A DNA stretch of 64,000 nucleotides from Smithellaceae bacterium (GCA_963682105.1 OY821638.1:4821245-4885244), one strand, 5' to 3'; shown: positions 5,229 to 38,951, counted from the stretch's first letter. Notes: generated by a model not told the origin, from the letters alone. Program-made: numbers and translations.

Positions 5229-5255
5229 TGGTTTGAAAATGGAGGAATCCCGGAA

Positions 5256-6767: not shown

Positions 6768-6781
6768 CTGGAGAGCTCTAA

Positions 6782-8092: not shown

Positions 8093-8129
8093 TTCCGGCG
8101 CCATGAAATCATCACGACAGGAGAAGAAT

Positions 8130-8924: not shown

Positions 8925-8954
8925 ACCAATATATGATGAAAGGATGGAGGAGCA

Positions 8955-10196: not shown

Positions 10197-10210
10197 GGAG
10201 AGGGTTGACC

Positions 10211-16231: not shown

Positions 16232-16234
16232 GCC

Positions 16235-18789: not shown

Positions 18790-19496
18790 AGAAAAACGAA
18801 TCCATCAGTGTCATCATCCCGGTATACAACGGGGAGCGTTACATTGCCGAGGCCGTCGGAAGTGTCCTTGCACAGGATTACCCCCGGATCGAAATCGTCG
18901 CGGTGGATGACGGATCAACCGACCGCACCGCCGAATTACTGCGGTCTTATGCGAATGTGCACTACGTCTGTCAATCCAGACTGGGGGCTTCAGCCGCGCG
19001 CAACAACGGCGTTCGCTGTTCGTCAGGCGATTGGCTTGCCTTTCTGGACGCGGATGATCTCTGGATGCGCGATAAGCTGAAAGTGCAGACCGCCCTGTTG
19101 CGGACCAATCCCGACCTGGACATGGTTTTCGGATATGTCGAACAGTTCTACAGCCCGGAACTCGAGGCGTCGCTGAAAAGCAAAATAAAATTTGCCGAAG
19201 GCAGCATGCCCGGATATGTTCCGGGCTCCATGCTCGTCCGGAAAGATTCCTTTCTGAAGGTTGGCTTCTTCAATGAGGCATTCAAGATAGGTGAGTTCAT
19301 TGACTGGTACACGAGAGCGCTGGATTACGGTTTGAACGGTCATCTTGCCCGGGAAGTTGTGTTAAGAAGACGAATTCATGACGCCAATACCGGCATTCGG
19401 GAAAGGGATTCCCGCAAGGATTATCTGCGGGTGCTGAAAGCTTCGCTGGACAGACGAAGAATGAACGAAAAGAGAAAAGAGGCCGGTGGCGAATGA
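18786..19496 (+). CDS. Glycosyltransferase family 2
   Basis: ISVIIPVYNGERYIAEAVGSVLAQDYP..EIVAVDDGSTDRT plus the LDADD motif. ATGA overlap with the upstream gene. Confidence 0.9.
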   Translation: MKKNESISVIIPVYNGERYIAEAVGSVLAQDYPRIEIVAVDDGSTDRTAELLRSYANVHYVCQSRLGASAARNNGVRCSSGDWLAFLDADDLWMRDKLKVQTALLRTNPDLDMVFGYVEQFYSPELEASLKSKIKFAEGSMPGYVPGSMLVRKDSFLKVGFFNEAFKIGEFIDWYTRALDYGLNGHLAREVVLRRRIHDANTGIRERDSRKDYLRVLKASLDRRRMNEKRKEAGGE

Positions 19497-20650
19497 CGAC
19501 CGATAAAGAAGGCTTTTTCTGGCCGACGCACGAGCAGGAATTACTTCTTCAAGCGACGCTGCTCAAAGAGGAAAATGCCGTCACCGCATGGCGCAGTTGG
19601 GCCGCTTGCGTTAATTTCGATCGGCTGGATGCCGGCTCTCAGCGCCTTTTGCCCCTGCTTTATAAAAACCTCACCGATCAAAAGGTGAGGCATCCGGTTC
19701 TCGATGTGTACAAGGGGTTTTACCGGATGACCTGGTACAAGAACCGCCTTTTGTGCCATCGCATTACCGGTGTTTTACGTCTTCTGAATCAGCACGGCAT
19801 AGCGGCTCTGTTGTTGAAGGGGGCTGCTCTGGTCTCCCTTTATTATAAGGATTGGGCTCTGCGTCCGATGAATGACTTCGATTTGCTGGTGGAGCAGGAC
19901 CAGGTGATGAAAGCCGTTGAGCTTTTGTGCCGAAACGGCTGGACCCCGGTTGATTCACCGCCCGCCGAATCGGACTTTCAGACCCGGCATGCCTGTACGC
20001 TCACCGATGGTTCTGGCATCGAATTTGACCTTCACTGGCGGATCATGCATGAATCAGGCTGCAATGATGTTGATGACAACTTCAAGGGCAGCGCCATGCG
20101 GATCGATTTTTGCGGGGTTTACGTGTCCGTGCTGTCCCACACGGACCAGCTTTTTCACGTTCTTGTTCACGGCGTACGCTGGAACGTTATCGCGCCCCTG
20201 CGATGGGTTCCCGATGCAATGATGGTTTTGCGGGAAGCAGGATCGAAGATAGACTGGAACAGATTATTGCAGGAAGCCCGCGGCAGACGCCTTGTCGTCT
20301 CCCTGAAAAAATCGCTTACCTATCTTTATGACGGGTTTGCCGCGCCGATTCCGACTGACATCATGGCAACGGTGAAAAGATTGAAGCCGTCTGTGACGGA
20401 GCGACTGGAGTTTTGGATGAACAGCCGGCCCCGGGGGCTTCTGAGGGATATTGTTTATCTCTGGTTTACGCATGTCAGGACATCCGGCACTTCGGGATCG
20501 GTCAGGCTGTTGCTCCGATTTCCCTCTTTTCTCAGAACATTCTGGAAGGCGCCGGAGAAAAAGAACACGGCGGGTTTTCTGTTGGGCCGACTGATCAGAA
20601 GAATCTTTAATGGCGCCGGAGCATCACCCGGACAAAACCCGGCCGCCTGA
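19493..20650 (+). CDS. Uncharacterised nucleotidyltransferase family protein (NTP_transf_5 / PF14907-like)
   Basis: LLLKGAALVSLYYKDWALRPMNDFDLLVEQDQ...FDLHWRIMH matches the family pattern (LKG...R...D.DLLV...DLH). ATGA overlap with the upstream gene. Confidence 0.75.
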   Translation: MTTDKEGFFWPTHEQELLLQATLLKEENAVTAWRSWAACVNFDRLDAGSQRLLPLLYKNLTDQKVRHPVLDVYKGFYRMTWYKNRLLCHRITGVLRLLNQHGIAALLLKGAALVSLYYKDWALRPMNDFDLLVEQDQVMKAVELLCRNGWTPVDSPPAESDFQTRHACTLTDGSGIEFDLHWRIMHESGCNDVDDNFKGSAMRIDFCGVYVSVLSHTDQLFHVLVHGVRWNVIAPLRWVPDAMMVLREAGSKIDWNRLLQEARGRRLVVSLKKSLTYLYDGFAAPIPTDIMATVKRLKPSVTERLEFWMNSRPRGLLRDIVYLWFTHVRTSGTSGSVRLLLRFPSFLRTFWKAPEKKNTAGFLLGRLIRRIFNGAGASPGQNPAA

Positions 20651-20699
20651 AGAAGAGCCGCTGCTCGTAAGAAAATCACTGAAGAGGTATAATATTTTA

Positions 20700-22470
20700 A
20701 TGATTGCCGCCTTGTTAAAAAAAATATCAGGCGACTGGTATAATGAAAACATTTATTTCAAATATCGGATTCATAAAATGTCCCCCTGGAAGCGCATGCC
20801 GGCGCGATTTATTTTCCTGCCCATGGCCTTCGGGAGAAGACTCAACAAGTTCATCCGCGATAGACTGGAAATACCCGGCGTGGAAATGTCCATCATCACT
20901 CCCTGCAACCCGCATTGCAGAGACTGTGAAAGCCTGAATCCTCTTCATCCGCAACCGGTTGCTCCGGACATCGACCGGCTTATCAGGGATGCAAACGATT
21001 TTTTGTTCCACGTGGATTGTGTGCACCGCCTGATGATTACAGGCAGCGAGCCCTTTGCTTATCGTGAATTCCCTGCGCTCTTGACTTACCTGCTTGGGCA
21101 GGACAAAATTAATCTGGTGCATCTTTTCACCCGCGGTTCGGTTCTTCCAGGACCGGATATTCTGCAGTTACTCAGGCATCGCAAAATCCTGGTGACGATC
21201 AGCAGTTATCCGGCGGAAGATTCGCCGGATAAACCCCGTTTCATTGCCGTTATGGAAGAAAATTGCATCAATTACATGGTGAAAGATACCTGGCGGGATC
21301 TGGGCAGTTTCAATCCTGTTGCGGATGGCAGTCTGGACGCCATGAAACACCGTTTTGCAAGATGTGTCAGCAGAGTTCATAATCTGAACGGCGGCGAGTA
21401 CCATCTGTGCCCCCGGTCGGCTCATGGCCGGCAATTGAGACAGTTTTCTCCGGAGAAGCCGGAGAGCGTGATCTTCCGGGACAGGAAAAACCCTCAGGCG
21501 TTTAAAAAAGAGATGCGGCAACTTCTGCTGAAAAAGTATCTTACCGCCTGTCGCCAATGCGGGGGAAGCCGCAGAGAAACAAAAATGGACATCCTGTTAC
21601 AGACATTGTCGGGAAGATGGTACAATGAAAATATTTACTATAAATATCACATCCACAAGATGTCGCCGGGGCGGCAGGATGCAGCGCGGCTCTTGTTCCT
21701 GCCTTTGTCCATGGGGATAAAACTCAACAGTGCGATACGTCATCGATTGGAAATACCGCATATCGAACTGCCGATTACCACCCGCTGCAACCTGCGCTGT
21801 AAAGACTGCGGGAATTTAATTCCTTTTTATCCGCGTCCGGCTGATTTTGACGTGGAACAGTTGATTCAGGATGCCGATGACTTTCTGAATCATGTGCATC
21901 GGGTTCACCGTTTTATCGTTATGGGCGGTGAAACCTTTCTCTACCGGGAATTGCATCGATTATTAAGTCACCTGATTCAACAAAACAAGATTGGTCTTCT
22001 GCACCTTTTTACCAATGGTTCCGTCATCCCCAAAACAGAGATCCTGCAATTGCTGAAGCATCGCAAAATCCTGGTGTCCGTGAGCAGTTTCCCGGCGGAG
22101 GTGTCCCCCAACAAAGCCCGTTTCATTGATATCCTCGAAGAAAACCATATCAATTATAAAATAGAAGATCATTTGTGGCGGGATCTGGGCGGCATCAATC
22201 CGGACGTGGACAGCCGTCCGGAAACACTGAAGCGTCGTTTCGCCAATTGCAGCATTAAAGGGTGCCATAACTTGAGCAACGGCGAATATCATTTATGTCC
22301 CCGATCTGTTCATGGTGAGCAGTTGGGACAATTTGTGCCGGATGCCTCGGACAAAGTGGTCATCCGGAACCGGAAGGATCCCCATGCCTTTAAAAAAGAA
22401 CGGCAGGCTTTGCTTCGGAAAGAATATCTTGCCGCCTGCAGCAGATGTACGGGCAAACCCGAAGAAACCG
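20700..22470. repeat. Intragenic tandem duplication (module 1 20700-21584; module 2 21585 to about 22470)
   Basis: Aligning the two halves by eye gives roughly half identical residues and no stop codon between them. Confidence 0.85.
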
Positions 22471-22592
22471 TTTATCCGGGCATTCAGATATCCGGGGGTG
22501 TTGCAGATATAATCGGAAAAAACGACAGGCCGTCTTCAGAGGCCCGGGGAAAAAATCAGGATATTTCCGATCTTGCCCGCCTGAAAATCTGA
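20700..22592 (+). CDS. Fused twin radical-SAM enzyme (two paralogous ~295-aa rSAM modules in one ORF)
   Basis: Module 1 has ITPCNPHCRDC and module 2 has ITTRCNLRCKDC (both CxxxCxxC). Each module starts with ...SG.WYNENIY.KY.IHKMSP and ends with YL.AC..C. Start ATG 20700 is chosen by symmetry with the module 2 Met at 21585; the ORF is also open from 20610. Confidence 0.8.
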   Translation: MIAALLKKISGDWYNENIYFKYRIHKMSPWKRMPARFIFLPMAFGRRLNKFIRDRLEIPGVEMSIITPCNPHCRDCESLNPLHPQPVAPDIDRLIRDANDFLFHVDCVHRLMITGSEPFAYREFPALLTYLLGQDKINLVHLFTRGSVLPGPDILQLLRHRKILVTISSYPAEDSPDKPRFIAVMEENCINYMVKDTWRDLGSFNPVADGSLDAMKHRFARCVSRVHNLNGGEYHLCPRSAHGRQLRQFSPEKPESVIFRDRKNPQAFKKEMRQLLLKKYLTACRQCGGSRRETKMDILLQTLSGRWYNENIYYKYHIHKMSPGRQDAARLLFLPLSMGIKLNSAIRHRLEIPHIELPITTRCNLRCKDCGNLIPFYPRPADFDVEQLIQDADDFLNHVHRVHRFIVMGGETFLYRELHRLLSHLIQQNKIGLLHLFTNGSVIPKTEILQLLKHRKILVSVSSFPAEVSPNKARFIDILEENHINYKIEDHLWRDLGGINPDVDSRPETLKRRFANCSIKGCHNLSNGEYHLCPRSVHGEQLGQFVPDASDKVVIRNRKDPHAFKKERQALLRKEYLAACSRCTGKPEETVYPGIQISGGVADIIGKNDRPSSEARGKNQDISDLARLKI

Positions 22593-22606
22593 CTTGAATC
22601 CTGAGT

Positions 22607-23410
22607 TCAAACCTTCATACCCGGCAGGTTGAGCGATGCCGTGTTGCCGCCGTCCACCGGCAGGGCCTGTCCGGTGATGTAACTGGCCGCGTCGCTGGCT
22701 AAAAAGCAGATCGCCTGGGCCACTTCTTCCGGGCGACCGTAACGCCGCAGTTCACAGCGGCTGCCGAGCTTATCGACCTTGCCTTTATCACGGGCCAGCT
22801 CAAATATCGGACGGGTCATTCCCGTTTCGATCAGGCCGGGACAGACGGCGTTGACGCGGATGTTGAAGCCGCCCAGATCGCATGCTGCCGTTTGTGTAAA
22901 GTTAATCACGGCGGCTTTGCTGGCGCTGTAAGCGTTCAGGCCGGCGCCGGCGCGGATTCCGGCCACGGAGGCTGTATTGACGATGGCACCGGAATTTCTT
23001 CCCCGCATATGCTTTGCGGCGTGCTTGATCGCGAAAACGGCGCCCAGAACATTGACTTCATAAACATGCTGCCAGTCTTCTTTGGATTCCTGATCCAGCC
23101 CGAGAAACTCTCCCGTGATGCCCGCATTGTTGCACAGGATGTCAATCTGTCCGTAAGTCTGAACGGCAAAATTGATCAGCGCTTCGACATCGCTTTCCTT
23201 TGATACATCCGTCTGTCTGCCGACAACGGCGCCTTTTTCCTCTTTTACGAGACCGACGGTTTCCGTCAGGCCCTTTTCATTGATATCAGCCAACAGCAGC
23301 TTTGCGCCTTCGCGGGCAAAAAGAATCGCCGCCGCACGGCCGATGCCGTCTGCCGCTCCGGTGATGACAGCCACTTTTCCTTCCAGACGTCCATTTTCCT
23401 TGTTTGTCAT
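22607..23410 (-). CDS. Short-chain dehydrogenase/reductase (SDR)
   Basis: TGAADGIGRAAA (TGxxxGxG), NNAG, and YSASKAAV (YxxxK). Confidence 0.9.
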   Translation of the reverse strand: MTNKENGRLEGKVAVITGAADGIGRAAAILFAREGAKLLLADINEKGLTETVGLVKEEKGAVVGRQTDVSKESDVEALINFAVQTYGQIDILCNNAGITGEFLGLDQESKEDWQHVYEVNVLGAVFAIKHAAKHMRGRNSGAIVNTASVAGIRAGAGLNAYSASKAAVINFTQTAACDLGGFNIRVNAVCPGLIETGMTRPIFELARDKGKVDKLGSRCELRRYGRPEEVAQAICFLASDAASYITGQALPVDGGNTASLNLPGMKV

Positions 23411-23451
23411 TTTACTATAAACTCCTTTTTTTAGAATCTTTAATACTTTAT

Positions 23452-24216
23452 CTAAGTGAGGAAGCCGCCGTCAACGATAAAGTTTGCACCCGTTGTGAAG
23501 GAGGCCGCGTCGGAAACCAGATACAAAACCACTCCGGCAATTTCTCTCGGAACAGCATGCCTGTTCAGGGGAATCATTTTCACTGCGATGTCGTGGATGG
23601 CCTCATTGTCCATAATGGCTTTGGAGAAGTGTGTGTCCACTAAGCCGGGCAGGAGTGCGTTTACACGGATATTTTTCCCCGCAAGCTCTTTGGCAAAAGC
23701 CTGGGTCATGGAGATAAGTCCCGCCTTGGTCATGGAATAGACGCCTTGAAAAGGCGCAGGCCTGATCCCATTCACTGACGATACATTCACGATGGTTCCG
23801 CCTCCTGTCGCCTCCATGATCCTTGCCGCCTTCTGGATCATGAAGAAAGGCCCTTTGAGGTTCACGTCAAATGTTTTGTTCCAGACCCCTTCATCCGCAC
23901 CCATCATTTCCCCAAAGTATGGATTGGTGGCAGCATTGTTTATAAGGATGTCTACCCTGCCGCAGCTCTCTTTGATACCGGCGAAAAGCATATCGACCTG
24001 TTTGAGATCGCCGACATTGCAGGCCATGACATCAGTCATCCCTCCCCGGGATGCTATCTTAGAAGCCACTTCTTTCAGTGCATCAGCCTTCCTGCTTACC
24101 AGGATGCAATGTGCTCCGTAATCGGCAAGCGTGATGGCGATGGCCTCGCCTATGCCCCTGCTCGCGCCTGTGATCACTGCAACTTTTCCATTCAGATTGA
24201 AATCTACCTTATCCAT
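23452..24216 (-). CDS. Short-chain dehydrogenase/reductase (SDR)
   Basis: TGASRGIGEAIA, NNAA, and YSMTKAGL (YxxxK). Confidence 0.9.
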   Translation of the reverse strand: MDKVDFNLNGKVAVITGASRGIGEAIAITLADYGAHCILVSRKADALKEVASKIASRGGMTDVMACNVGDLKQVDMLFAGIKESCGRVDILINNAATNPYFGEMMGADEGVWNKTFDVNLKGPFFMIQKAARIMEATGGGTIVNVSSVNGIRPAPFQGVYSMTKAGLISMTQAFAKELAGKNIRVNALLPGLVDTHFSKAIMDNEAIHDIAVKMIPLNRHAVPREIAGVVLYLVSDAASFTTGANFIVDGGFLT

Positions 24217-24271
24217 GCTGGTCTCCTTACCGGTATTTCATTGTGATCCGGAAATCTTAAAACGTAAATCG

Positions 24272-25144
24272 CTAGCGCAGACCCACGAGGTCTGCGAAAT
24301 TTTTTCCCAGGAGCCTTTCCCTGACACTTGTGTCAGGAAACATCCTGTCAATTCTGCGTTTGATGAAGCCATAGTCGTACTGGTGCTCGGGTCCGTGAAA
24401 ACCGTAAGGACCGTCCGTGCCGAAGAAAAGCCGGTCCTCGCCGATGAACTCGACCGCACTGCGTGTGGCTGTTTCGCTGGTATAGCTCGTCTGCGAGAGA
24501 TCCAGATACACGTTTTTCATCGGTTTGATCTTCTTCCAGGTGTCGGCATAACCGGGAAAGCCCGCATGGGCCAGGATGAGCTTGAGGTCCGGTACTTTTT
24601 TCAGCAGGGCTTCGAAATTGCCTTCTTCCTCGAATCCGGTGTGAATGAGCAGCGGTTTGCCTATTTTGGCCAGCCGCCCGGCGACAGGCTCAAGTTCCAC
24701 AGGAGGAAAGTGATGCCAGAAAGGGTGTGCCTTGACGCCGATAAATCCCTTCTGGTCTTGATACTTCTCCAACTCATCCACCTGGCTTTTCTTTCCTCTG
24801 GGGTTGACAAAAACCCATCCGAGAAACTTATCCGGATGCTTCTCTACAGTATCAAAAACTTTCTTATTATCCGGATCGGTCGTAATCGGGTATGGCGTTC
24901 CCAGAATCTTGAGATCACCTTTATCCGTAAAATTTGAAATCAGGGCTTTGCCGATTCCCCGTAAAAAACGGTTTTCCAGAAGAGTCTGCAGGAGATTGAT
25001 GAGAAACCTGGGCGGTTCGGCAAAAGGTTCGATCAAAGACCCCATCAGCGCAACTTTGTCAATACCGCATTTCTGCATCTCGCCAATCAGTCGATCTACT
25101 GAGTAGACCCTTTCTTCCAGATGATAATGGCAATCAATGATCAT
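24272..25144 (-). CDS. Amidohydrolase-2 family metal-dependent hydrolase
   Basis: N-terminal MIIDCHYHL (HxH), with later HAGFPG and FGTDGPY. The family contains lactonases, decarboxylases and hydratases. Confidence 0.8.
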   Translation of the reverse strand: MIIDCHYHLEERVYSVDRLIGEMQKCGIDKVALMGSLIEPFAEPPRFLINLLQTLLENRFLRGIGKALISNFTDKGDLKILGTPYPITTDPDNKKVFDTVEKHPDKFLGWVFVNPRGKKSQVDELEKYQDQKGFIGVKAHPFWHHFPPVELEPVAGRLAKIGKPLLIHTGFEEEGNFEALLKKVPDLKLILAHAGFPGYADTWKKIKPMKNVYLDLSQTSYTSETATRSAVEFIGEDRLFFGTDGPYGFHGPEHQYDYGFIKRRIDRMFPDTSVRERLLGKNFADLVGLR

Positions 25145-26790
25145 ATCTTCCCCGCCTTTTCCAGTTCGAGACGCCGAAGTTCCTTTTTCATGACCTTGCC
25201 GGTAGGATTTCTCGGAAAGTCATCCACAAATTCTATAAAACTGGGGATTTTGTAGCGCGCAAGTTTTTCCTGGAGATAGGTCTTCAATTCTTCGTCCGTC
25301 ATGGAATCTTTTTCATGCAGCACGACGAAGGCTTTAACCTTTTCCGTAAGCGCCGGGTCCGGAACACCTATAACCGAGACCTCTCTTACTTTGGGATGGG
25401 TTTCGATGGCCATCTCCACCTCCCGGGGATAGATGTTTTCTCCGCCGCGGTTGATCATGTCCTTTTTCCGGTCAACGATGAAAATGAAGCCGTCCTTGTC
25501 CATGATTCCCATGTCTCCGGTGTGCAGCCAACCATCCTTAATGGTATCTCTTGTGGACTCCGGTTGATTATAATAGCATAGCATAACTTGGTCGCCCCTG
25601 ATACAGATCTCTCCGGGTTCCCCTGTGGGCATCTCATTGTTGTTGTCGTCCAGAATTTTCAACTCATTGCCCGGAATTCCAACGCCGACAGACCCCGGTT
25701 TTCTCTTGCCCAGAGGAGGATTTGCGGTCGATATGCCGTGCGCCTCGGAGAGGCCGAAACCCTCGATGATTTCCGTATTGAACTTGTCTCTGAATGTGTT
25801 GATGAGGTCGACGGGCATGGGGGCGGCTCCGCTGAATGCATATCTCAGCTTCAGTCGCGAACGGTCAATTTTCTCCGGGTCCGCAGTAAACAGCACAAAA
25901 GCATACAACGCCGGCACGCCCATGACGACCGTGATGCCGTAATCCAGAATAGGCTCCCAGAAGTCGTTGGGCGAGGGACTTTTGCGCAGGCAGATGGTCA
26001 GTCCGGCAAACATGAGGGGGAATGTCCACACACAGATAGGGTTTACGTGGAACATGGGAAGAACCATGAGCATCACATCGTTATCCCTGTAGCAATTCAT
26101 GCTTGCCATTCCCCTGCACAAGGACAATTGTCCGGCATTTTTAAGCAGGATGCCCTTGGGGCGCCCGGTGGTTCCCGAAGAGTACAATAGAAGAAAGGGA
26201 TCGTCCGGCTTCTGGGGCACAAAGGCTTCGTTTGTCGGGTAGTTTAGAAGAATTTCCGAAAGGGTCGTTTCCACCGGCCCGAATGCATGCCCGGTTCCGG
26301 TGACCACTTCAACCACAATGGGTTTATGGGTTGCCTGTTCATATCCTGCGGCAAACGGCTTCATAAACTCGCTTCCCACAAAGACGATTTTTGGTTTGGC
26401 ATCATCAAGAAGATAGGCTATTTCCGGACCCTGGAGCATAAAATTGACGGCTCCGGAAATGGCTCCAAGTTTCTGGATGCCAAACATAATATGGAAAACT
26501 TCGGGAGAGTTGAGAACCAGAAAGGAGACAAAATCGCCTTTCCGGATGCCTTTGCTTTTCAGAAAGTTGGCTACCCTGTTGGCGCGTTCATTGACTTGCC
26601 GGTATGTTATAACCTGTTCATAAAAATAAACAAACGTTTTATGCGGAATCTCCGCTGCCCTGGCGACAAGCATTTCCGCAGGACTGTCGAATTCGGTTTT
26701 TAATCCCTTTAATACAGATATCTGATTCAGTGGACACGCATCGATCGTGACCTTCTGTGCTGCAAGACCCATGGTTGTTTCTCCTTTCAT
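25141..26790 (-). CDS. AMP-forming acyl-CoA synthetase (ANL superfamily)
   Basis: Carries YSSGTTGRPKG (A3 motif), GEICIRG and WLHTGDMG..D.DGF, with the C-terminal lysine context PRNPTGKVMK. Confidence 0.9.
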   Translation of the reverse strand: MKGETTMGLAAQKVTIDACPLNQISVLKGLKTEFDSPAEMLVARAAEIPHKTFVYFYEQVITYRQVNERANRVANFLKSKGIRKGDFVSFLVLNSPEVFHIMFGIQKLGAISGAVNFMLQGPEIAYLLDDAKPKIVFVGSEFMKPFAAGYEQATHKPIVVEVVTGTGHAFGPVETTLSEILLNYPTNEAFVPQKPDDPFLLLYSSGTTGRPKGILLKNAGQLSLCRGMASMNCYRDNDVMLMVLPMFHVNPICVWTFPLMFAGLTICLRKSPSPNDFWEPILDYGITVVMGVPALYAFVLFTADPEKIDRSRLKLRYAFSGAAPMPVDLINTFRDKFNTEIIEGFGLSEAHGISTANPPLGKRKPGSVGVGIPGNELKILDDNNNEMPTGEPGEICIRGDQVMLCYYNQPESTRDTIKDGWLHTGDMGIMDKDGFIFIVDRKKDMINRGGENIYPREVEMAIETHPKVREVSVIGVPDPALTEKVKAFVVLHEKDSMTDEELKTYLQEKLARYKIPSFIEFVDDFPRNPTGKVMKKELRRLELEKAGKI

Positions 26791-26817
26791 TGATGTGTCG
26801 CTTCGCCTGGCAGGCGA

Positions 26818-28311
26818 TTAAACCATTTTTGTCAGCGTTCCGGGTTTCAGTTGTTCGATTCCCGCAAGGTAATTGGCAAGATGTTCCCGAAGTTTGATGT
26901 CGTACTGGGATGTGATGGCAATCTGCTCCATGATGGGTGATCCGCCGCCGTGATAGTTGCCATAGTTCATCGATCCGGTGGCTGAGGAACAGGTAAAATC
27001 AATGAAGGACAGCCAGAACCGAATCTGATGCTCGATCGGTATTTTGGGATTGCGCATCAGGTATTTCTCCAGTGTTGCTTTGGTTTCCGGATTGGTGAGA
27101 TCACCTTCATAGGGGAATGTGGCTGGCAGGCCGCCTGCGATGTTGCAGAGAATTTCCTGCTCGTGGAAGACGGCTTCGCCGGTGAGGCATCGGCCCACAT
27201 TGGCATAAATCGAATTCGGGATGTAGCTGCCCGGTCCGTAGGGTATGGGGCCCATTCCCGGGACATAAATTTCAGGCTTTGCCGTGGCCGATGCGGTAAA
27301 GCCCGCCGCATAACCCAGTTCCGAAACCGTGATGATTTCCGCCAGCATTTCCCGGATGTGCGATTCTTTCCTGATGCCATTGACATTGGCGGCCTGCGAA
27401 GCCATGCCCAGAAGAACATCACCGATCGCCGGCTTGCAGCCTGAATAGCTGTGACGGTGAAACAGCGCAAACAGAAGGGCGCAGGCGCCGCCGTGCATAT
27501 TTTCCCCGCAGAGGAACACGCGTTCCCACGGCACAAAGACGTTATCAAAGACCACATAGGAATCCGTATAACCCCCATCAAAGCCCCGTTGGTAATGCTT
27601 ACGCTCGCGCATCGCATGGATATGGACGATTTGCCTTACTCCCTCATGATCGGCCGGGACGGCAAACGCAACGGCATAGTCTTTCTCATCCGGACCCAGC
27701 GCGCGGGTGGGCACAACCATAATTTCATCGGCAATCGACGCCTCCGAGATATGGACTTTGCAGCCATTGACAACGATGCCGTCTTTCTTTTTTTCCACCA
27801 CATGAAGGTATGCATCCGGATCCGTCTGCTCGGCCGGTCTTTTCAATCGCTCGCCTTTCACATCCGTCTGGGCGCTGCACCCCACCAGATCGTTTTTCTG
27901 GAAATAGTCAAGCCACTTCAGAAAATTTTTATGGTATTCCGTGTTGCCGTTGTTCTGCTTGTCGGCTTCGAAGGAAGCGGCATTGACGGCGTTGAGCGCA
28001 TCGCATCCCATGCACCGCTGGATGCATAAGCCGACCTTCCTGCAAAGGGCACGCGTCATGTTCTGCTTTTTATGCAGATCCTCAGGAGACTGATGAACAT
28101 GGCAGAACCGGTTGATGATTTCACCTGATAAATGGGATTTGGCCGTGCACAGGTCTTTGAGCTCGGGATCGCATGCGGCGTCAAAAGTAACGCCCATGAC
28201 ATTAAGAACCTTCTGCTGGACTTCATCGGTTCGGTCAATTTTATTCCCGTCAAAAAATAAATTCCGCCGCATCTTTCTTAAGCCTTCTACGTATTGCTCT
28301 CTCGTTCTCAT
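26818..28311 (-). CDS. 4-hydroxybutyryl-CoA dehydratase / vinylacetyl-CoA isomerase family protein (AbfD-like), paralog 1
   Basis: 497 aa with AAAGGAGG SD. It has CIQRC (Cx3C) and HRHSYSGC (Hx6C), matching the AbfD [4Fe-4S] ligand spacing (C99/C103/H292/C299 in the Clostridium enzyme, from memory). Confidence 0.8.
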   Translation of the reverse strand: MRTREQYVEGLRKMRRNLFFDGNKIDRTDEVQQKVLNVMGVTFDAACDPELKDLCTAKSHLSGEIINRFCHVHQSPEDLHKKQNMTRALCRKVGLCIQRCMGCDALNAVNAASFEADKQNNGNTEYHKNFLKWLDYFQKNDLVGCSAQTDVKGERLKRPAEQTDPDAYLHVVEKKKDGIVVNGCKVHISEASIADEIMVVPTRALGPDEKDYAVAFAVPADHEGVRQIVHIHAMRERKHYQRGFDGGYTDSYVVFDNVFVPWERVFLCGENMHGGACALLFALFHRHSYSGCKPAIGDVLLGMASQAANVNGIRKESHIREMLAEIITVSELGYAAGFTASATAKPEIYVPGMGPIPYGPGSYIPNSIYANVGRCLTGEAVFHEQEILCNIAGGLPATFPYEGDLTNPETKATLEKYLMRNPKIPIEHQIRFWLSFIDFTCSSATGSMNYGNYHGGGSPIMEQIAITSQYDIKLREHLANYLAGIEQLKPGTLTKMV

Positions 28312-28342
28312 ATGGGCCTCCTTTGAATAGTTAATATATTGA

Positions 28343-28366
28343 ACAGTACTGTCTGTTATTACAGAC
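28343..28366. promoter_or_regulatory. Overlapping palindromes in the abfD1 leader
   Basis: ACAGTACTGT (28343-28352) is a perfect 10-bp palindrome. GTCTGT-TATT-ACAGAC (28351-28366) is a perfect 6-bp-arm inverted repeat. Confidence 0.35.
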
Positions 28367-28384
28367 TTGATTTTGCATGTTAAA

Positions 28385-28435
28385 ATCTTAAGTGAATAAG
28401 CTTAACTTGACAATTTCGTTAGAAGACAATAACAT
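28385..28435. promoter_or_regulatory. Back-to-back divergent promoter candidates (abfD1 operon and araC-type gene) with overlapping -35 boxes
   Basis: Plus strand: TTGACA 28407-28412, 17-nt spacer, TAACAT 28430-28435. Minus strand: TTGTCA (complement of 28408-28413), 17-nt spacer, TAAGAT (complement of 28385-28390). Confidence 0.4.
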
Positions 28436-28483
28436 TGTCATTTACGGACAATTATTGGACAATAATATTGTCATTTGCGGACA
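28425..28483. promoter_or_regulatory. Two tandem 26-bp operator-like units spaced 33 bp
   Basis: GACAATAACATTGTCATTTACGGACA (28425-28450) and GACAATAATATTGTCATTTGCGGACA (28458-28483) are 24/26 identical. Each contains the inverted repeat GACAAT-N3-ATTGTC. They lie between the putative -10 and the araC-type ATG. Confidence 0.5.
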
Positions 28484-28491
28484 GGGGTGAT

Positions 28492-29538
28492 ATGAGAAAA
28501 CATTCAAACACGGACACGCATTTCACATCAAAAGGAGTTCTGCCGTATTATCGCTCGGTCAATATCCTGTCGGTCGTTGTCCATTATATGGAAAAGCTTG
28601 GGTTTGATGCAGATGATCTTCTTGCCGGCAGCGGCATTCAGGCAGGCGACCTGGACGACCCGGATGTTTTTGTAACGCCGGAACAGGAATTTAAGGTCAT
28701 GCGCAAGATCGTTGCCTTGAAACCGGACCCGACGATAGGGTTCGTTCTGGGACAGCAGTACCATATCGGAGTTTACAATAAGATCGGAGCGGCGGTTTGC
28801 AGCAGTGACACGCTGCTTGAGGCCTTAAAAATACTCTTTCAATATATCGATCTCACCATGACCTATTTCCAGTACGATCTTGAGGTGAGGGATAATCTTG
28901 TTTTTATAAAAATCAGGGAGCTTATTGACCTCAAGGAACTGCGCAAATTTATCTGTGAAAGAGAATTTTCCGCCGCGCATCGGATCGTCTGCGACGCCCT
29001 TCAGTTACTCATACCGTTTAATGAAGTCAGACTTGCTTACCCGAAGCCGGCGCATGCCTCTACCTATAAGGATGCATTCCGGTGTCCGGTTTATTTTAAT
29101 GCTCCTGAACACATGGTCGTTTTTGACAGCAAGTATCTCTTCATGCGGTTGCCGATGGCAAATCCGCTGATGAAAAAAACATACGAGAAAGAATGCAGGC
29201 AATTGTGCCTTCGCCTGCAGGTACAGGAGTCCGCCACCGATCAGGTGCGGCATAACATTTTTTTCGGCCCTGAAGGCCTGCCGTCGTTGGGCCAGTTGTC
29301 CCGGAACATGAGTATTTCATCCAGAACCCTGAGACGCCGTCTGGCAGAAGAGGGAACATCCTTTAAGGCATTGGGGGCGGAAATTCTGAAAGAAAAGGCA
29401 ATCAATCTGATTCAAACGACATCCCGGCCGATGGAGCAGATTGCCGCGGAACTCGGATACAGTGATCTGCCGAATTTTTACCGTGCCTTCAGGAACTGGA
29501 CCGGGCATAAACCCAGTTATTATCGTGAAAGAAAATAA
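28492..29538 (+). CDS. AraC family transcriptional regulator
   Basis: ATG 28492 follows an AGGGGTGA SD. The C-terminal HTH region is LSRNMSISSRTLRRRLAEEGTSFKAL...IAAELGYSDLPNFYRAFRNWTG. Confidence 0.9.
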   Translation: MRKHSNTDTHFTSKGVLPYYRSVNILSVVVHYMEKLGFDADDLLAGSGIQAGDLDDPDVFVTPEQEFKVMRKIVALKPDPTIGFVLGQQYHIGVYNKIGAAVCSSDTLLEALKILFQYIDLTMTYFQYDLEVRDNLVFIKIRELIDLKELRKFICEREFSAAHRIVCDALQLLIPFNEVRLAYPKPAHASTYKDAFRCPVYFNAPEHMVVFDSKYLFMRLPMANPLMKKTYEKECRQLCLRLQVQESATDQVRHNIFFGPEGLPSLGQLSRNMSISSRTLRRRLAEEGTSFKALGAEILKEKAINLIQTTSRPMEQIAAELGYSDLPNFYRAFRNWTGHKPSYYRERK

Positions 29539-29593
29539 CTGAACGGCTCCGGTTATAAGCAAAACCATACTGAGTAGGTCTATTGCCGTTAGT

Positions 29594-29640
29594 GAAAAAA
29601 AAGAAACTCCGGAAGGCAACCGTTGCCTTCCGGAGTTTCT
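29594..29640 (-). terminator. Rho-independent terminator of abfD2 (39-nt perfect palindrome)
   Basis: 29602-29640 pairs perfectly (19 bp around C29621). The A-run at 29595-29601 becomes a U-tract on the minus strand. It lies between the convergent araC-type and abfD2 genes. Confidence 0.8.
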
Positions 29641-29669
29641 GATATGGGTATTCAAAGCCTGTTGAACGG

Positions 29670-31163
29670 TTAAGTCATTTTAGTCAGCGTTCCCGCCTTC
29701 AGGGGTTCAATTCCCGCCAGATAATTGGCCAGATGTTCCCGAAGTTTGATATCATACTGGGAGGTAATGGCAATCTGTTCCATGATCGGCGATCCGCCGC
29801 CGTGATAGTTGCCGTAGTTGATCGATCCGGACGTTGACGAACAGGTGTAATCAATGAAGGACAGCCAGAACCGAATCTGATGCTCGATCGGTATTTTGGG
29901 ATTGCGCATCAGGTATTTTTCCAGCGTTGCCTTGGTTTCCGGATTGGTGAGATCGCCTTCATAGGGGAAGGTGGCCGGCATGCCGCCTGCAATGTTGCAC
30001 AGAATTTCCTGCTCATGGAACACGGCTTCGCCGGTGAGGCATCGGCCCACATTGGCGTAGATCGAATTCGGAATGTAACTGCCCGGTCCGTAGGGGACAG
30101 GACCCAGTCCCGGAATATAGATTTCCGGTTTGGCCATGGCCGATGCGGTAAAGCCTGCGGCGTACCCCAGTTCCGAAACCTTGATAATTTCAGACAGCAT
30201 TTCCCGGATATGCGACTCTTTCTTGACGCCGTTGACATTGGCGGCCTGAGATGCCAGGCCCAAAACGATGTCGCCGATGGCAGGCTTGCAGCCGGAATAG
30301 CTGTGACGGTGGAACAGCGCAAACAGGAGAGCGCAGGCGCCGCCGTGCATATTCTCGCCGCAGAGGAACACGCGGTCCCACGGCACGAAAACATGGTCAA
30401 AAACAATATAGGAATCCGAATAGCCGAAACTGAAGCCTCTTTGATAATGCTTGCGTTCGCGAAGCGTATGAAGATGGACGATCTGCTTTACGCCTTCATG
30501 ATCAGCGGGCACGGCAAACGCAACGGCATAATCTTTTTCATCCGGACCCAGCGCGCGGGTGGGCACAACCATGATTTCATCGGCAATGGACGCCTCCGAG
30601 ATATGGACCTTGCAGCCATTGACGATGATGCCGTCTTTATTTTTTTCCACCACATGGAGATAGGCATCCGGGTCTGTCTGCTCGGCCGGTCTTTTCAACC
30701 GCTCGCCTTTCACATCCGTCTGGGCGCTGGCGCCGACCAGATCGTTTTTCTGGAAATATTCGAGCCATTTCAGGAAATTTTTATGGTACTCCGTGTTGCC
30801 GTTGTTCTGCTTGTCCGCTTCGAAGGAGACGGAATTGACGGCGTTGAGCGCGTCGACGCCCATACACCGCTGGATGCACAGGCCGACTTTTCGGCACAGG
30901 GCGCGGGTCATGTTCTGCTTTTTATGCAGATCCTCCGGAGACTGATGAACGTGGCAGAACCGGTTGATCGTTTCGCCCGTCAGATGGGATTTGGCCGTGC
31001 ACAGGTCCTTCAGTTCGGGATCGAAGGCCGCGTCAAAGGTAACGCCCATGACGTCGATCACCCTTTTCTGGACCTCGTCGGTTCGGTCAATCTTGTTGCC
31101 GTCAAAATATAAATTCCGTCGCATCTTTTTCAGACCTTCTATGTACTGCTCTTTGTTTCTCAT
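29670..31163 (-). CDS. AbfD-like dehydratase family protein, paralog 2
   Basis: Start moved to ATG 31163 (AAAGGAGG SD, same geometry and 497-aa length as paralog 1). It keeps CIQRC and HRHSYSGC. Confidence 0.8.
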   Translation of the reverse strand: MRNKEQYIEGLKKMRRNLYFDGNKIDRTDEVQKRVIDVMGVTFDAAFDPELKDLCTAKSHLTGETINRFCHVHQSPEDLHKKQNMTRALCRKVGLCIQRCMGVDALNAVNSVSFEADKQNNGNTEYHKNFLKWLEYFQKNDLVGASAQTDVKGERLKRPAEQTDPDAYLHVVEKNKDGIIVNGCKVHISEASIADEIMVVPTRALGPDEKDYAVAFAVPADHEGVKQIVHLHTLRERKHYQRGFSFGYSDSYIVFDHVFVPWDRVFLCGENMHGGACALLFALFHRHSYSGCKPAIGDIVLGLASQAANVNGVKKESHIREMLSEIIKVSELGYAAGFTASAMAKPEIYIPGLGPVPYGPGSYIPNSIYANVGRCLTGEAVFHEQEILCNIAGGMPATFPYEGDLTNPETKATLEKYLMRNPKIPIEHQIRFWLSFIDYTCSSTSGSINYGNYHGGGSPIMEQIAITSQYDIKLREHLANYLAGIEPLKAGTLTKMT

Positions 31164-31268
31164 ATGTGCCTCCTTTAAGACGTGTCTTATGTCGATCAAT
31201 AAATTATTGACGTTCATAATATTTGTCTATATTTTAACTCATAATAAATAAAAATCAATAAATATTAA

Positions 31269-31297
31269 TTGACAGTAATTATAAGTTGGTTTAATAT
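31269..31297 (+). promoter_or_regulatory. Candidate sigma70-type promoter of the tetR-type gene
   Basis: TTGACA (31269-31274), 17-nt spacer, TAATAT (31292-31297), inside an AT-rich divergent region. Confidence 0.45.
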
Positions 31298-31431
31298 TAC
31301 TATTACATTGATTATTTTGCGTTTCTTAGAACGGTTGTATGGGTTCATATGGCCCATTACCACAGGCGAAGATACTTGCCTTTTGACGTGCCGTGATTTA
31401 GATTGCAGACCCAACACAACAAGGAGAGTTT

Positions 31432-32133
31432 ATGGCCAGAGATGATATCAAGGAAGCCAGAAAAGATAATGTTATTGAATCCGCTCTGCAGGTGTTTGCG
31501 GAAAAAGGTTATGCGGATGCCACCATGACCGATATCGCAAAAAAAGCGGGTGTTTCCACGCCGGTTTTGTATGAATATTTTAAAACCAAGGAGGATTTGC
31601 TTTTTGCCATTCCGGAAAAATTTACCGGAGAGCCGGCGCAAATGTTTGATTTTATGCTTCCCTACCTTCGAGGGCCTGAAGCAAAAATAAGGGGAATTGT
31701 TCAGGGGTATTTGACTCTTTATGAAAGCAACCCTCTTTACACGTCCCTGGTCATGCTGGAATTAAAAACAAATCGAAGGTTCTTGAAAACGAATGCATAC
31801 AGCCTCATCAAGAAGGTTGCCCATATCCTTCTGGAAAGCATTCGGGAAGGAATCAACGACGGAACATTTAAAGAGAATACCGATGCTTTTTTGATCCGAT
31901 CCATGATTTTGGGCGCCATTGAGCATCTGTGCGTCCGCAAGCTTCTGCTCGGGGAACCGAAAAATCTCCTTTTGTATGTTGATCCGATGGTTGATACGAT
32001 TCTGGATGGAATCAAGAAGCAGTCAAAACAGGTTTCCATTAATCTGAATCTGAATAATCTGGAGTTGCCGGACCGTCCGGCGGCCGATTTGCCGAAAGGA
32101 AGAAAAGCAGGCGCCGGAAAGAAATCATCCTGA
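31432..32133 (+). CDS. TetR/AcrR family transcriptional regulator
   Basis: The N-terminal HTH is ESALQVFAEKGYADATMTDIAKKAGVSTPVLYEYFKTKEDLL. AAGGAGAG SD. Confidence 0.9.
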   Translation: MARDDIKEARKDNVIESALQVFAEKGYADATMTDIAKKAGVSTPVLYEYFKTKEDLLFAIPEKFTGEPAQMFDFMLPYLRGPEAKIRGIVQGYLTLYESNPLYTSLVMLELKTNRRFLKTNAYSLIKKVAHILLESIREGINDGTFKENTDAFLIRSMILGAIEHLCVRKLLLGEPKNLLLYVDPMVDTILDGIKKQSKQVSINLNLNNLELPDRPAADLPKGRKAGAGKKSS

Positions 32134-32170
32134 GGACCGGCGCGGCTTTCTATTATGGTGTACATGGGCT

Positions 32171-32941
32171 ATGCAATCAGAAGATTATGAACGTCTGAAA
32201 TACGCCCGCGGCCTTCTTGAAACCCCGGGGCTTGCAGCACGGCTTTCAAATATGATCGGCATGCCCTTTGAGAAGGCCTTTGAATATCTGCCGGCAAAAT
32301 GGTCTGACTCGATCCAGACGATTACCCGGAAATCTCTGTGGCATGCGCTCGACATTGCCGTCAAAACCTTTGACCGGCATGAAAAAAGATTAGCCAGTAA
32401 TGCCCTTCATAAAGTTCTTGTTGCCGCGTCGGGAGGAGTGGGTGGCGCTTTTGGGCTTCCGGCGCTGGCCATTGAATTGCCGGTTACAACCGTCATTATG
32501 TTCCGGTCCATTGCCGATATCGCCAGAAGCGAAGGGGAGGATCTTCAGCAGATGGAAACCAGGCTCGCCTGTCTTGCGGTTTTTGCTCTGGGAGGAAACT
32601 CCGCCAAAGACGACGGCGCTGAGGGCGGCTATTACGCAGTGAAGATCCTGCTGGCCCAGCAGTTGTCCGAGGCTGCCAGGTATATTGTGCAAAGGGGAAT
32701 TGCCGAAGAAGGAGCCCCTGCGCTGGTCAGGCTTCTGGCCACAATCGCCTCAAGATTCGGCGTCACCGTGTCACAGAAAGCCGCCGCATCGGCGGTTCCG
32801 CTTATCGGCGCAGCCGGAGGCGCGCTCATCAACTCTCTCTTTATGGAACATTTCCAGAACATGGCAAGAGGGCATTTCATGATGAGGGGGCTCGAAAAAA
32901 AATACGGTCCGGAAGAGGTTTCCCGCCTGTATCACCTATAA
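32171..32941 (+). CDS. EcsC family protein
   Basis: ASGGVGGAFGLPALAIELPVTTVIMFRSIADIARSEG resembles the EcsC core (GG.SG.GG...DLP....I.LR). Confidence 0.65.
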   Translation: MQSEDYERLKYARGLLETPGLAARLSNMIGMPFEKAFEYLPAKWSDSIQTITRKSLWHALDIAVKTFDRHEKRLASNALHKVLVAASGGVGGAFGLPALAIELPVTTVIMFRSIADIARSEGEDLQQMETRLACLAVFALGGNSAKDDGAEGGYYAVKILLAQQLSEAARYIVQRGIAEEGAPALVRLLATIASRFGVTVSQKAAASAVPLIGAAGGALINSLFMEHFQNMARGHFMMRGLEKKYGPEEVSRLYHL

Positions 32942-38798: not shown

Positions 38799-38913
38799 AA
38801 AAACTCCTCTAAGTAAATAATCCGTACTGTCATTATTACGATTAGCGCTTATCGTCAAGTACCCAATCGCATAAAAACAAACAGGATAACGTAATGTAAG
38901 GAGTGTGAAAACG

Positions 38914-38951
38914 AAAGAAAAAAAGCTGATGGCCGTTGCCATCAGCTTTTT
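38914..38951 (-). terminator. Rho-independent terminator after atpB
   Basis: 10-bp stem AGCTGATGGC / GCCATCAGCT with a 4-nt loop. An A-run on one side and a T-run on the other give a U-tract on the minus strand. Confidence 0.8.

Follow-up and report, generated by a model that had tools for sequence, protein, structure and literature searches.

The closest relatives of solved structure of the proteins described here are two 4-hydroxybutyryl-CoA dehydratases (4HBDs), AbfD of C. aminobutyricum (PDB 1u8v) and the archaeal enzyme of Nitrosopumilus maritimus (6vjr). AbfD also has vinylacetyl-CoA isomerase activity, which is reflected in the PDB name of 6vjr. Four AbfD residues, T190, E257, Y296 and E455, have been reported to be important for dehydratase activity (bioRxiv 10.1101/2020.02.05.935528). 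HpaB oxygenase components (e.g. T. thermophilus HpaB, 2yyg) have the Pfam domains and the overall fold in common with the proteins of this study but are devoid of the Fe-S ligands. A different, aerobic route from 4-hydroxyacyl-CoAs into β-oxidation is described (PMC11342911, PMC6692424) for Lva of Pseudomonas putida (levulinate) and for mammalian ACAD10/ACAD11, which phosphorylate the 4-hydroxyl group, after which an ACAD domain eliminates the phosphate.

Two AbfD-like genes are located in a 64,000-nt stretch of DNA from a Smithellaceae bacterium (the window). Their products align over the full length with AbfD and 6vjr (~36-40% identity) and have the same fold, identical Cys, Cys, His, Cys ligands, Tyr296, Lys300 and the HGxGSP loop. 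In contrast to AbfD and 6vjr, they belong to a separate clade in which Glu455 is replaced by Gly or Ala and Glu257 by Asp and which has an 11-residue β-hairpin insertion, and the genes of this clade are found with TetR, SDR and β-oxidation genes and with varied CoA activators. With Lva and ACAD10/ACAD11 the likeness would be a functional analogy, in which CoA activation is combined with a step of the SDR type at C4 and a 4-hydroxyacyl-CoA is turned into an enoyl-CoA; the systems are not homologous, no kinase is present in the one described here, and a radical Fe-S flavoenzyme of the oxygen-sensitive type would act directly.

Gene organization and comparison of the two copies

The features of the locus are the following (Pfam E-values in parentheses).

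22607..23410, minus strand: SDR2, short-chain dehydrogenase, last gene of the operon (adh_short_C2, 3.8e-67)
23452..24216, minus strand: SDR1, DHRS4-like SDR of the carbonyl-reductase type (adh_short_C2, 6e-65)
24272..25144, minus strand: Amidohydro_2 metal-dependent hydrolase or decarboxylase (PF04909, 4.4e-26, 92.8 bits)
25141..26790, minus strand: acyl-CoA ligase, AMP-binding (AMP-binding, 9e-85)
26818..28311, minus strand: AbfD-like enzyme, predicted [4Fe-4S]/FAD type, paralog 1, first gene of the operon
28312..28434, no strand assigned: divergent control region of AraC and paralog 1, aligning along its full length with the AraC-AbfD intergenic region of locus L001
28435..29538, plus strand: AraC-family regulator, divergent from paralog 1 (Arabinose_bd, 1e-40; HTH_18, 1e-17)
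29602..29640, minus strand: intrinsic terminator of paralog 2, a perfect 39-nt palindrome (18-pair stem, 3-nt loop, then T7)
29670..31163, minus strand: AbfD-like enzyme, predicted [4Fe-4S]/FAD type, paralog 2, monocistronic
31195..31273, minus strand: two palindromes GTCAAT-N5/8-ATTGAT (31195-31211 and 31254-31273; pattern search), putative TetR operators
31432..32133, plus strand: TetR-family regulator, divergent from paralog 2 (TetR_N and TetR_C_4)

Both paralogs are 497 aa long. BLASTP gave 449/497 identical and 481/497 positive positions without gaps, and the number of substitutions is exactly 48, in agreement with the first-pass annotation, which had described copies of about 90 percent identity without indels and with some 48 substitutions. 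At the DNA level the copies are 86.7% identical (198 differences in 1494 nt), with 143 of the differences at third codon positions. A dS of 0.62 and a dN/dS of 0.08 were determined for the pair, the latter indicating strong purifying selection on both copies. Their likeness ends at the boundaries of the coding sequences (CDS), and the flanks have just chance 7-10-mers in common.

As annotated before, and as borne out by ORFs and Pfam matches, paralog 1 lies beside the AraC gene and heads a five-gene operon in which it is followed by genes for a CoA ligase, an Amidohydro_2 protein and two SDRs. The ligase gene, whose stop codon overlaps the start of the Amidohydro_2 gene, has an orthologue at the same position in locus L002; its product clears the NF004837 subfamily cutoff and has FadD13 as best PDB match. 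SDR1 clears the cutoff of NCBIfam NF005446 (best PDB match DHRS4, 3o4r, 5e-50), and its orthologues (72-82% identity) adjoin TetR-AbfD in ~24 other loci. Orthologues of SDR2 come after the Amidohydro_2 gene in loci L001, L002, L057 and L081. The Amidohydro_2 protein has a DCHYH motif in its N-terminal part, further His residues after it and the Asp of a GTDGP motif. Sequence and profile searches of the PDB gave only weak matches to 3ij6, LigW decarboxylases and 3cjp (E 1e-6 to 3e-3) and no specific similarity to lactonases of the LigI/fuconolactonase type. The lactonase role proposed at first pass has therefore gained no specific support, as the weak matches are with an uncharacterised hydrolase and with LigW decarboxylases. 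The host is a Smithella-like anaerobe.

Among 80 related loci, the AbfD-like gene is adjoined by TetR in 35, by an SDR of the SDR1 type in 24 and by a 3-hydroxyacyl-CoA dehydrogenase gene in 24; linkage to the Amidohydro_2 gene is confined to the Smithella group. Genes for ligases of two other types, for family III CoA-transferases, for an acyl-CoA dehydrogenase and for an enoyl-CoA hydratase are also among the neighbours. Further variants of the CoA activator are a ligase of 674 aa and a CoA-transferase of family I. The context is heterogeneous: many loci comprise just TetR and the AbfD-like gene, or the latter without a partner. In Desulfarculus baarsii, TetR stands beside a monocistronic AbfD-like gene.

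Fold, family and active site

Both copies have the Pfam architecture HpaB_N (1.4e-86) and HpaB_C (2.2e-50). In phmmer searches of the PDB the best match was 1u8v (E 2.7e-92), followed by 6vjr (E 2.4e-75), whereas HpaB structures matched far more weakly (E ~1e-28) and over just ~350 residues. An AlphaFold model (pLDDT 86, pTM 0.87; lowest confidence at residues 455-467, beside the active-site loop of interest) had 1u8v (TM 0.81) and 6vjr as top Foldseek matches. Both genes are thus predicted to code for enzymes of the AbfD fold (4-hydroxybutyryl-CoA dehydratase/vinylacetyl-CoA isomerase) that depend on a [4Fe-4S] cluster and FAD.

Clade placement is that of an NJ tree with 100 bootstraps. The clade of the window proteins was recovered with a bootstrap value of 100 and the canonical 4HBD clade with 95, and the two were exclusive sisters in 0/100 replicates. 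In a representative library of 1.84 billion proteins the whole clade forms one 50%-identity cluster, the next clusters being at 48, 44, 44 and 40% identity. Its members occur in Thermodesulfobacteriota and Desulfotomaculum-type Firmicutes, and no paper describing it was found in the literature searched. The paralogs hence fall in a distinct, widespread and apparently uncharacterised clade outside the characterised 4HBDs. Several members are named 4-hydroxybutyryl-CoA dehydratase by JGI, and NCBI names for homologues are of the HpaB type.

The Cx3C and Hx6C motifs noticed at first pass as matching the ligand spacing of AbfD are C96/C100 and H285/C292 in both paralogs, and they align with C99/C103 and H292/C299 of AbfD. 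In 120 sampled clade members, C99, C103, H292, C299, Y296 and K300 (AbfD numbering) are invariant. Position 455 is Gly in 96/120, Ala in 24/120 and Glu in none; it corresponds to Gly451 in both paralogs. Position 257, Glu in AbfD, is Asp in 120/120, and all 120 carry the 11-residue β-hairpin insertion (window residues ~345-355), which is missing even from the nearest sister clusters. Thr190 is replaced by Ser in most members, and further changes are Ala460 to Gly, Gln189 to Ile and His196 to Asp. The changes at 190 and 257 are conservative and Tyr296 is retained; with Glu455 lost, the catalytic set is incomplete in the paralogs. The full T-E-Y-E set (190, 257, 296, 455) is kept in the characterised 4HBDs and their clusters, from Clostridium to a thaumarchaeon.

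The NCBI names and the HpaB_N and HpaB_C matches would suit two-component flavin monooxygenases with phenolic acids as substrates. This identity has next to no chance of being correct and was ruled out by the [4Fe-4S] ligand pattern, which HpaB lacks, and by phylogeny, in which HpaB-type sequences form a separate clade; the assignment to the AbfD type made at first pass was thereby upheld. Scores also remained below the equivalog level (TIGR02309: 146 bits, cutoff 480; TIGR02310: 54 bits, cutoff 885), and the host lineage is strictly anaerobic.

Regulators and transcription signals

The AraC-family regulator has an N-terminal domain of the Arabinose_bd type and a double HTH, and is 77% identical to its L001 orthologue. 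The intergenic alignment with L001 contains long invariant blocks, and a promoter-like site is present on the minus strand (28413-28385). The AraC protein would control the paralog 1 operon.

The C-terminal domain of the TetR-family protein is FadR/YsiA-like; its best NCBIfam match is Bacillus-type FadR, below the cutoff. The two palindromes are the only matches to GTCAAT-N5/8-ATTGAT in the window (0.07 expected), and conservation in L081 extends to the distal one. They overlap the hexamers of promoter-like sites upstream of paralog 2 (31268-31241 and 31258-31231), and via these two operators the FadR-like TetR encoded divergently probably represses paralog 2. The Shine-Dalgarno context AAAGGAGGC(C/A)CAT ATG precedes both copies; for paralog 2, the start at 31163 is backed by conservation of the Shine-Dalgarno sequence and ATG in L081. 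The terminator begins 30 nt past the stop codon of paralog 2, has 9 GC pairs among its 18, and is the strongest terminator-like site within 22000-32500. All elements previously ascribed to paralog 2 (monocistronic gene, own Shine-Dalgarno sequence, palindromic terminator, TetR neighbour) are therefore present.

History of the duplication

Loci L001 and L081 are single-copy loci of different related genomes. The unit of AraC and paralog 1 is collinear with L001 (flanking dS 1.05-1.73), and that of TetR and paralog 2 with L081. Both 5' junctions therefore predate coalescence of the CDS, and thus any conversion or recombination was ancient. Collinearity of each regulator-gene unit with the locus of a different genome implies an older duplication whose CDS were homogenised or recombined long ago; the stand-alone gene of the ancestral style is paralog 2.

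The 90% protein identity without indels, the restriction of likeness exactly to the CDS and a slightly smaller distance between the copies (dS 0.62) than from either to the nearest other genome (0.77-0.79) could be taken to indicate a recent tandem duplication or recent homogenisation by gene conversion. Such a recent event is very improbable and was largely refuted, not only by the age of the junctions but also by the dS of the pair, which matches the values for single-copy flanking genes when the window is compared with L081 (0.63-0.87). Moreover, no long identical tract was detected: identical runs reach 70 nt at most, and no more than four paralog-shared informative sites are consecutive. 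The duplication is not recent, and it is not unusual either. The recent origin suggested at first pass was accordingly given up, and its proposal of gene conversion holds only in the form of an old homogenisation or recombination, for which synteny argues.

Predicted function

Overall, the locus is best explained, with a little better than an even chance, by an AbfD-type radical dehydratase/isomerase whose substrate would be a 4-hydroxyacyl-CoA different from the C4 compound. The adjacent ligase would form the CoA thioester of a free acid, a role that non-homologous ligases or CoA-transferases would take elsewhere. The AbfD-like enzyme would then remove the γ-hydroxyl group by radical chemistry and/or shift the double bond, and the resulting 2-enoyl-CoA would enter β-oxidation. 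Candidate substrates are 4-hydroxyacyl-CoAs with a longer, branched or cyclic acyl group or, alternatively, a 4-oxoacyl-CoA that would first be reduced by the DHRS4-like SDR. That 4-hydroxybutyryl-CoA is probably not the substrate is suggested by E455G, E257D, T190S and A460G together with the 11-residue insertion. Of the lactone or hydroxy-acid pathway sketched at first pass, a CoA-thioester route for a hydroxy- or oxo-acid fits the 80 loci; 4-hydroxybutyrate or GABA is not the default substrate, since the clade lies outside the characterised 4HBDs and lacks the catalytic Glu455.

Both copies could nevertheless be ordinary 4HBDs (EC 4.2.1.120/5.3.3.3) serving catabolism of 4-hydroxybutyrate, GABA or succinate semialdehyde, as the JGI names of several clade members have it. 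Full-length identity of ~40% to AbfD of C. aminobutyricum, the same fold and the retained Fe-S ligands, Tyr296 and Lys300 are in line with this, as are crotonase and 3-hydroxyacyl-CoA dehydrogenase genes that adjoin the gene in some loci and whose products would consume crotonyl-CoA. Another residue may compensate for Glu455, with 4-hydroxybutyryl-CoA still the substrate. We consider this unlikely: the reportedly critical Glu455 is Gly or Ala throughout the clade while bona fide 4HBDs hold the complete T-E-Y-E set, the clade is separate (bootstrap 100/95) with an insertion of its own, and the frequent neighbours in the 80 loci included no partner specific for 4-hydroxybutyrate.

Loss of Glu455 could also mean that dehydratase activity is gone altogether. 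The clade would then have kept only the isomerase half-reaction known from AbfD and, controlled by a FadR-like TetR, provide an auxiliary Δ3-Δ2-enoyl-CoA isomerase for β-oxidation of fatty acids that are unsaturated or unusual, a role compatible with the β-oxidation neighbours and with the frequency of stand-alone genes beside FadR-like TetR in fatty-acid-oxidising anaerobes (Desulfarculus, Desulfotomaculum relatives, Syntrophothermus, Smithella). It appears quite doubtful, because Tyr296, Lys300 and all four ligands of the cluster are strictly retained in 120/120 members, which suggests that cluster chemistry is still used, and because linkage to SDRs and to enzymes of CoA activation speaks for a dedicated substrate and against general fatty-acid oxidation.

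The two AbfD-like genes and their surroundings

Paralogs 1 and 2, whose products resemble AbfD, the 4-hydroxybutyryl-CoA dehydratase (4HBD) of Clostridium aminobutyricum, both encode 497 amino acids. The first-pass annotation had counted about 48 substitutions and no indels between them; alignment gave 449 of 497 identical residues, no gaps and exactly 48 substitutions. Its calls for the neighbouring ligase, amidohydrolase, SDR and regulator genes agreed with Pfam.

Genes of the paralog-1 operon, paralog 2 and adjacent regulators (window positions; neighbours by Pfam)
22607-23410, SDR2
23452-24216, SDR1
24272-25144, Amidohydro_2 protein
25141-26790, AMP-binding CoA ligase
26818-28311, minus strand, paralog 1, 497 aa
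28435-29538, plus strand, AraC regulator
29670-31163, minus strand, paralog 2, 497 aa
31432-32133, plus strand, TetR regulator

Spacing in the paralog-1 operon is tight (from paralog 1 onwards 27 nt, a 4-nt overlap, 55 nt and 41 nt). Both paralogs are preceded by AAAGGAGGC(C/A)CAT ATG, and their similarity to each other does not extend beyond the coding sequences. Downstream of paralog 2, the terminator described for it was found as a perfect 39-nt palindrome plus T7. Exact-sequence look-ups returned no record of either paralog. An upstream start of paralog 2 at ATG 31217 (515 aa) was rejected in favour of the ATG at 31163, since it is this ATG and its Shine-Dalgarno sequence that are conserved in L081, a related locus on a 326-kb JGI metagenome contig that also encodes the closest protein (P0001, 93%). 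A 410-aa antisense ORF within paralog 2 (29880-31112, plus strand) was dismissed as a shadow ORF, an artefact of codon bias; the same shadow ORF lies opposite orthologues in about ten other loci (ORF cluster C5).

Family and fold of the AbfD-like proteins

In phmmer searches against the PDB, the best matches were AbfD (1u8v, 2.7e-92) and the Nitrosopumilus 4HBD (6vjr, 2.4e-75), while HpaB-type oxygenases reached at most about 1e-28 over partial length. An AlphaFold model (pLDDT 86, pTM 0.87) had 1u8v as its best structural match (TM 0.81). The predicted [4Fe-4S] ligand spacing was borne out, as C96, C100, H285 and C292 align with C99, C103, H292 and C299 of AbfD. A reading as HpaB oxygenases was rejected: scores against the NCBIfam HpaB equivalogs fell far short (146 bits, cutoff 480), the Cys ligands are present, and in a neighbour-joining tree (100 bootstraps) the HpaB-type sequences without Cys ligands formed a separate group in which the window proteins were not placed. 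Both proteins are thus on the AbfD side of the HpaB superfamily.

A conserved clade with a different active site

The window family forms one cluster among 1.84 billion representatives at 50% identity (representative P0044, 76% identity); the next clusters follow at 48, 44, 44, 40 and 39%. Members of the clade holding both paralogs (hereafter window clade) lie on at least 265 stretches of species-representative genomes and make up more than 120 clusters at 90% identity. Bootstrap values were 100% for this clade and 95% for the canonical clade, i.e. the biochemically characterised 4HBDs and their relatives; the two were exclusive sisters in no replicate.

Active sites were compared in an alignment of 103 full-length representatives, with the roles of the catalytic residues of AbfD as reported in a preprint (bioRxiv 10.1101/2020.02.05.935528). 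Characterised 4HBDs and their clusters had the ligands CCHC together with T190, E257, Y296 and E455 (AbfD numbering), whereas both paralogs and all clade members in this alignment had CCHC with Ser, Asp, Tyr and Gly. None of 120 clade members has Glu at position 455, where Gly stands in 96 and Ala in 24; position 257 is Asp in all 120. A460 and Q189 are likewise replaced throughout (by Gly and Ile, 120/120), and H196 by Asp or Glu. All 120 also carry an 11-residue insertion, KPE(I/V)Y.PG.G.. (window residues ~345-355), which forms a beta-hairpin in the predicted model and is missing from AbfD and the nearest sister clusters.

The proteins keep the CCHC ligands but differ in catalytic pattern and clade, which makes them members of the AbfD structural family and, judged by these residues, would set them outside the functional class of 4-hydroxybutyryl-CoA dehydratases, a tested defining feature of which they lack. 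The earlier label of an AbfD-type dehydratase therefore holds at the level of the fold; active-site residues and clade placement do not justify a specific enzyme name. No description of the window clade was found in the full-text literature searched, although subscription journals may hold one. Many further clusters of the HpaB/AbfD superfamily in the 103-representative alignment have the Cys ligands with other residues at 257, 296 and 455, so that AbfD-like Fe-S flavoenzymes form a broad radiation; in this analysis no match to a characterised enzyme was made for any of them.

Gene neighbourhood and regulators

ORFs were called and clustered in 80 related loci and checked with Pfam. A TetR gene lies beside the AbfD-like gene in 35 of the 80 loci, mostly immediately upstream; an SDR1 orthologue (72-82% identity) and a 3-hydroxyacyl-CoA dehydrogenase are each found nearby in 24. 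Subsets of loci have enoyl-CoA hydratase, long acyl-CoA dehydrogenase, family III CoA-transferases, two other types of acyl-CoA synthetase, carboxyltransferase or an isochorismatase-like hydrolase. The order in the Smithella group is TetR, AbfD-like gene, CoA activator, then Amidohydro_2 and SDR2, where the place of the activator is taken by the 549-aa ligase or by a 674-aa ligase unrelated to it; family I CoA-transferase subunits occupy this position in locus L039. That the activator varies by non-orthologous replacement while the AbfD-like gene beside it stays the same speaks for activation of a free acid, which is then passed to the AbfD-like enzyme. The gene is monocistronic with a divergent TetR gene alongside in Desulfarculus baarsii, and stands alone in Desulfotomaculum arcticum.

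SDR1 is similar to DHRS4-type carbonyl reductases. The Amidohydro_2 protein shows the typical HxH...H...H...D pattern and, by sequence and profile, weak similarity to LigW decarboxylases and an uncharacterised hydrolase; its assignment as a lactonase, for which specific similarity was not found, was therefore dropped. The pathway sketched initially, from lactone or hydroxy acid via CoA thioester and radical dehydration to SDR-mediated oxidation, is plausible in outline; its lactonase step found no support.

The intergenic region shared by TetR and paralog 2 can be aligned with its L081 counterpart, includes a long, nearly invariant block and contains two palindromes.

Putative TetR operators upstream of paralog 2
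31195-31211, palindrome GTCAAT-N5-ATTGAT
31254-31273, palindrome GTCAAT-N8-ATTGAT

The window has no other match to GTCAAT-N(4-9)-ATTGAT (0.07 expected by chance). The distal palindrome is conserved in L081, and both overlap promoter-like hexamers, which is a classical repressor layout; they are probably operators of TetR. As the exact palindrome recurs only in L081, with a variant upstream of the AbfD-like gene in locus L027, a family-wide operator is not shown across the related loci. The C-terminal domain of TetR is of the YsiA/FadR type, which suggests an acyl-CoA as effector. The region between AraC and paralog 1 is highly conserved with the Smithella locus L001.

Proposed function

Ketyl-radical dehydration at an unactivated gamma-hydroxyl group is known from very few enzymes, AbfD among them, and, to our knowledge, only the C4 reaction has been characterised. 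On balance, we favour AbfD-type radical dehydration or isomerisation for the window clade as well, with a substrate that is probably not 4-hydroxybutyryl-CoA and an enoyl-CoA product. The AbfD-like enzyme would act on a CoA ester by radical dehydration and/or double-bond isomerisation and deliver an enoyl-CoA to beta-oxidation, in keeping with the linkage of these genes to CoA activation, SDRs, beta-oxidation genes and FadR-like TetR regulators. Paralog 2 would be the TetR-repressed stand-alone version; paralog 1 would be part of a five-gene module under AraC control, in which the substrate is also activated and pre-processed. Canonical 4HBD function, with which the fold and the CCHC ligands agree, is unlikely given the replacement of Glu455 by Gly or Ala in every clade member and the position of the clade apart from the canonical one. 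A role in isomerisation only, one of the two activities considered for the radical enzyme, is less likely still.

Within the favoured reading of radical chemistry on another substrate, a more specific proposal is tentative. The clade, as marked by CCHC, Ser/Thr-Asp-Tyr-Gly/Ala and the 11-residue hairpin, may represent a radical dehydratase of new specificity. By this route, anaerobic and independent of ATP, gamma-hydroxy (or SDR-reduced gamma-oxo) acyl-CoAs longer or bulkier than C4 would be converted directly to enoyl-CoAs for beta-oxidation. Each of the two copies might then be adapted to its own substrate or inducer, one controlled by an acyl-CoA-sensing TetR and the other by AraC. If true, this route would be what the phospho-elimination pathways of Lva and ACAD10/11 correspond to in anaerobes.

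A sister clade that is large and conserved, keeps the cluster and has the catalytic Glu replaced suggests unexplored substrate scope in fatty-acid- and hydrocarbon-degrading syntrophs and sulfate reducers. For the same reason, its genes should not serve as metagenome markers of 4-hydroxybutyrate pathways or 4HB carbon-fixation cycles. This uncharacterised clade is the most interesting element of the region, above the duplication.

Age and history of the duplication

The window derives from a Smithella-like member of the Syntrophales. Its best genome matches are Smithella MAGs (L001, 90% protein identity; L002 and L003, 84-85%), and its flanking genes keep their order in L081 (87% nucleotide identity) and in L001 (81%). 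Alignment of the two copies gave a dS of 0.62 and a dN of 0.050 (Nei-Gojobori); the dN/dS of 0.08 places both under strong purifying selection. Single-copy flanking genes differ from L081 by a dS of 0.63-0.87 and from L001 by 1.05-1.73, which means that the divergence between the two paralogs roughly equals that between the window and L081. The longest identical run is 70 nt. There is no sign of a recent event, and the recent duplication inferred earlier is wrong.

Private sites number 81 in paralog 1, 97 in paralog 2 and 106 in the gene of L081, close to a trichotomy. Regional bias in a mosaic check of the three was weak, and a post-hoc breakpoint test would fail correction. Paralog 2, its intergenic region and TetR form one collinear alignment with L081, which has that unit only. 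L001, in turn, is collinear with the unit of paralog 1, AraC and the intergenic region between them, and has no other; both single-copy loci share the same flanks, MobA and Amidohydro_2. The 5' junction of each unit thus seems to predate the point at which the two coding sequences coalesce. In the simplest account, an older tandem pair would have had its coding sequences homogenised or recombined around the window-L081 split, and one unit would later have been lost in each relative. Paralog 1 shares more sites with L001 than paralog 2 does (97 vs 67; distant outgroups are symmetric), an excess that fits residual orthology from an old pair and is suggestive, not conclusive. Of the gene conversion considered initially, old homogenisation or recombination is what synteny and this residual signal suggest.

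The duplication itself is ordinary, as multi-copy states are common in the family: tandem copies occur in L022, L024 and L025, at least four assemblies contribute two loci each, and several other genomes have two or three copies. Second or third copies, in tandem or close by, in L022, L024, L025, L018 and L068 are 62-63% or 33-39% identical to the window protein. Ten of the 48 substitutions cluster in the 38 residues 226-263 around Asp250, the equivalent of Glu257; these changes are private to paralog 2, since L081 agrees with paralog 1 there, a pattern compatible with some functional divergence. In the single AbfD-like orthologue of L001 (9917-11407), codon 481 is an in-frame stop (HLAN*LAGIE); either the protein lacks its last 17 residues or the assembly is wrong at this point.

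Other genes of the window

A gene cluster at 29-11485 (plus strand) encodes three BcrAD/BadFG-type activator ATPases, a CdhC-like protein, a MinD/CbiA-like ATPase, a 2x[4Fe-4S] protein, two HGD-D (2-hydroxyacyl-CoA dehydratase / benzoyl-CoA-reductase-like) subunits and two acyl-CoA-dehydrogenase-like proteins, and looks like a separate ATP-dependent radical CoA-ester module. A 1484-aa fusion of BcrAD_BadFG ATPase and DUF2229 ('CoA enzyme activase') at 34488-38942 (minus strand) is conserved and syntenic in L081 and L001. Two Slp-family outer-membrane lipoprotein genes lie in tandem at 13291-14352 (minus strand). They are followed at 15056-22592 (plus strand) by a glycosyltransferase cluster (GT4, GT61-like, GT2), an NTP_transf_5 protein gene and, at its end, a gene for a 660-aa radical SAM protein, which is convergent on the paralog-1 operon and adjoins SDR2 in L001 too.
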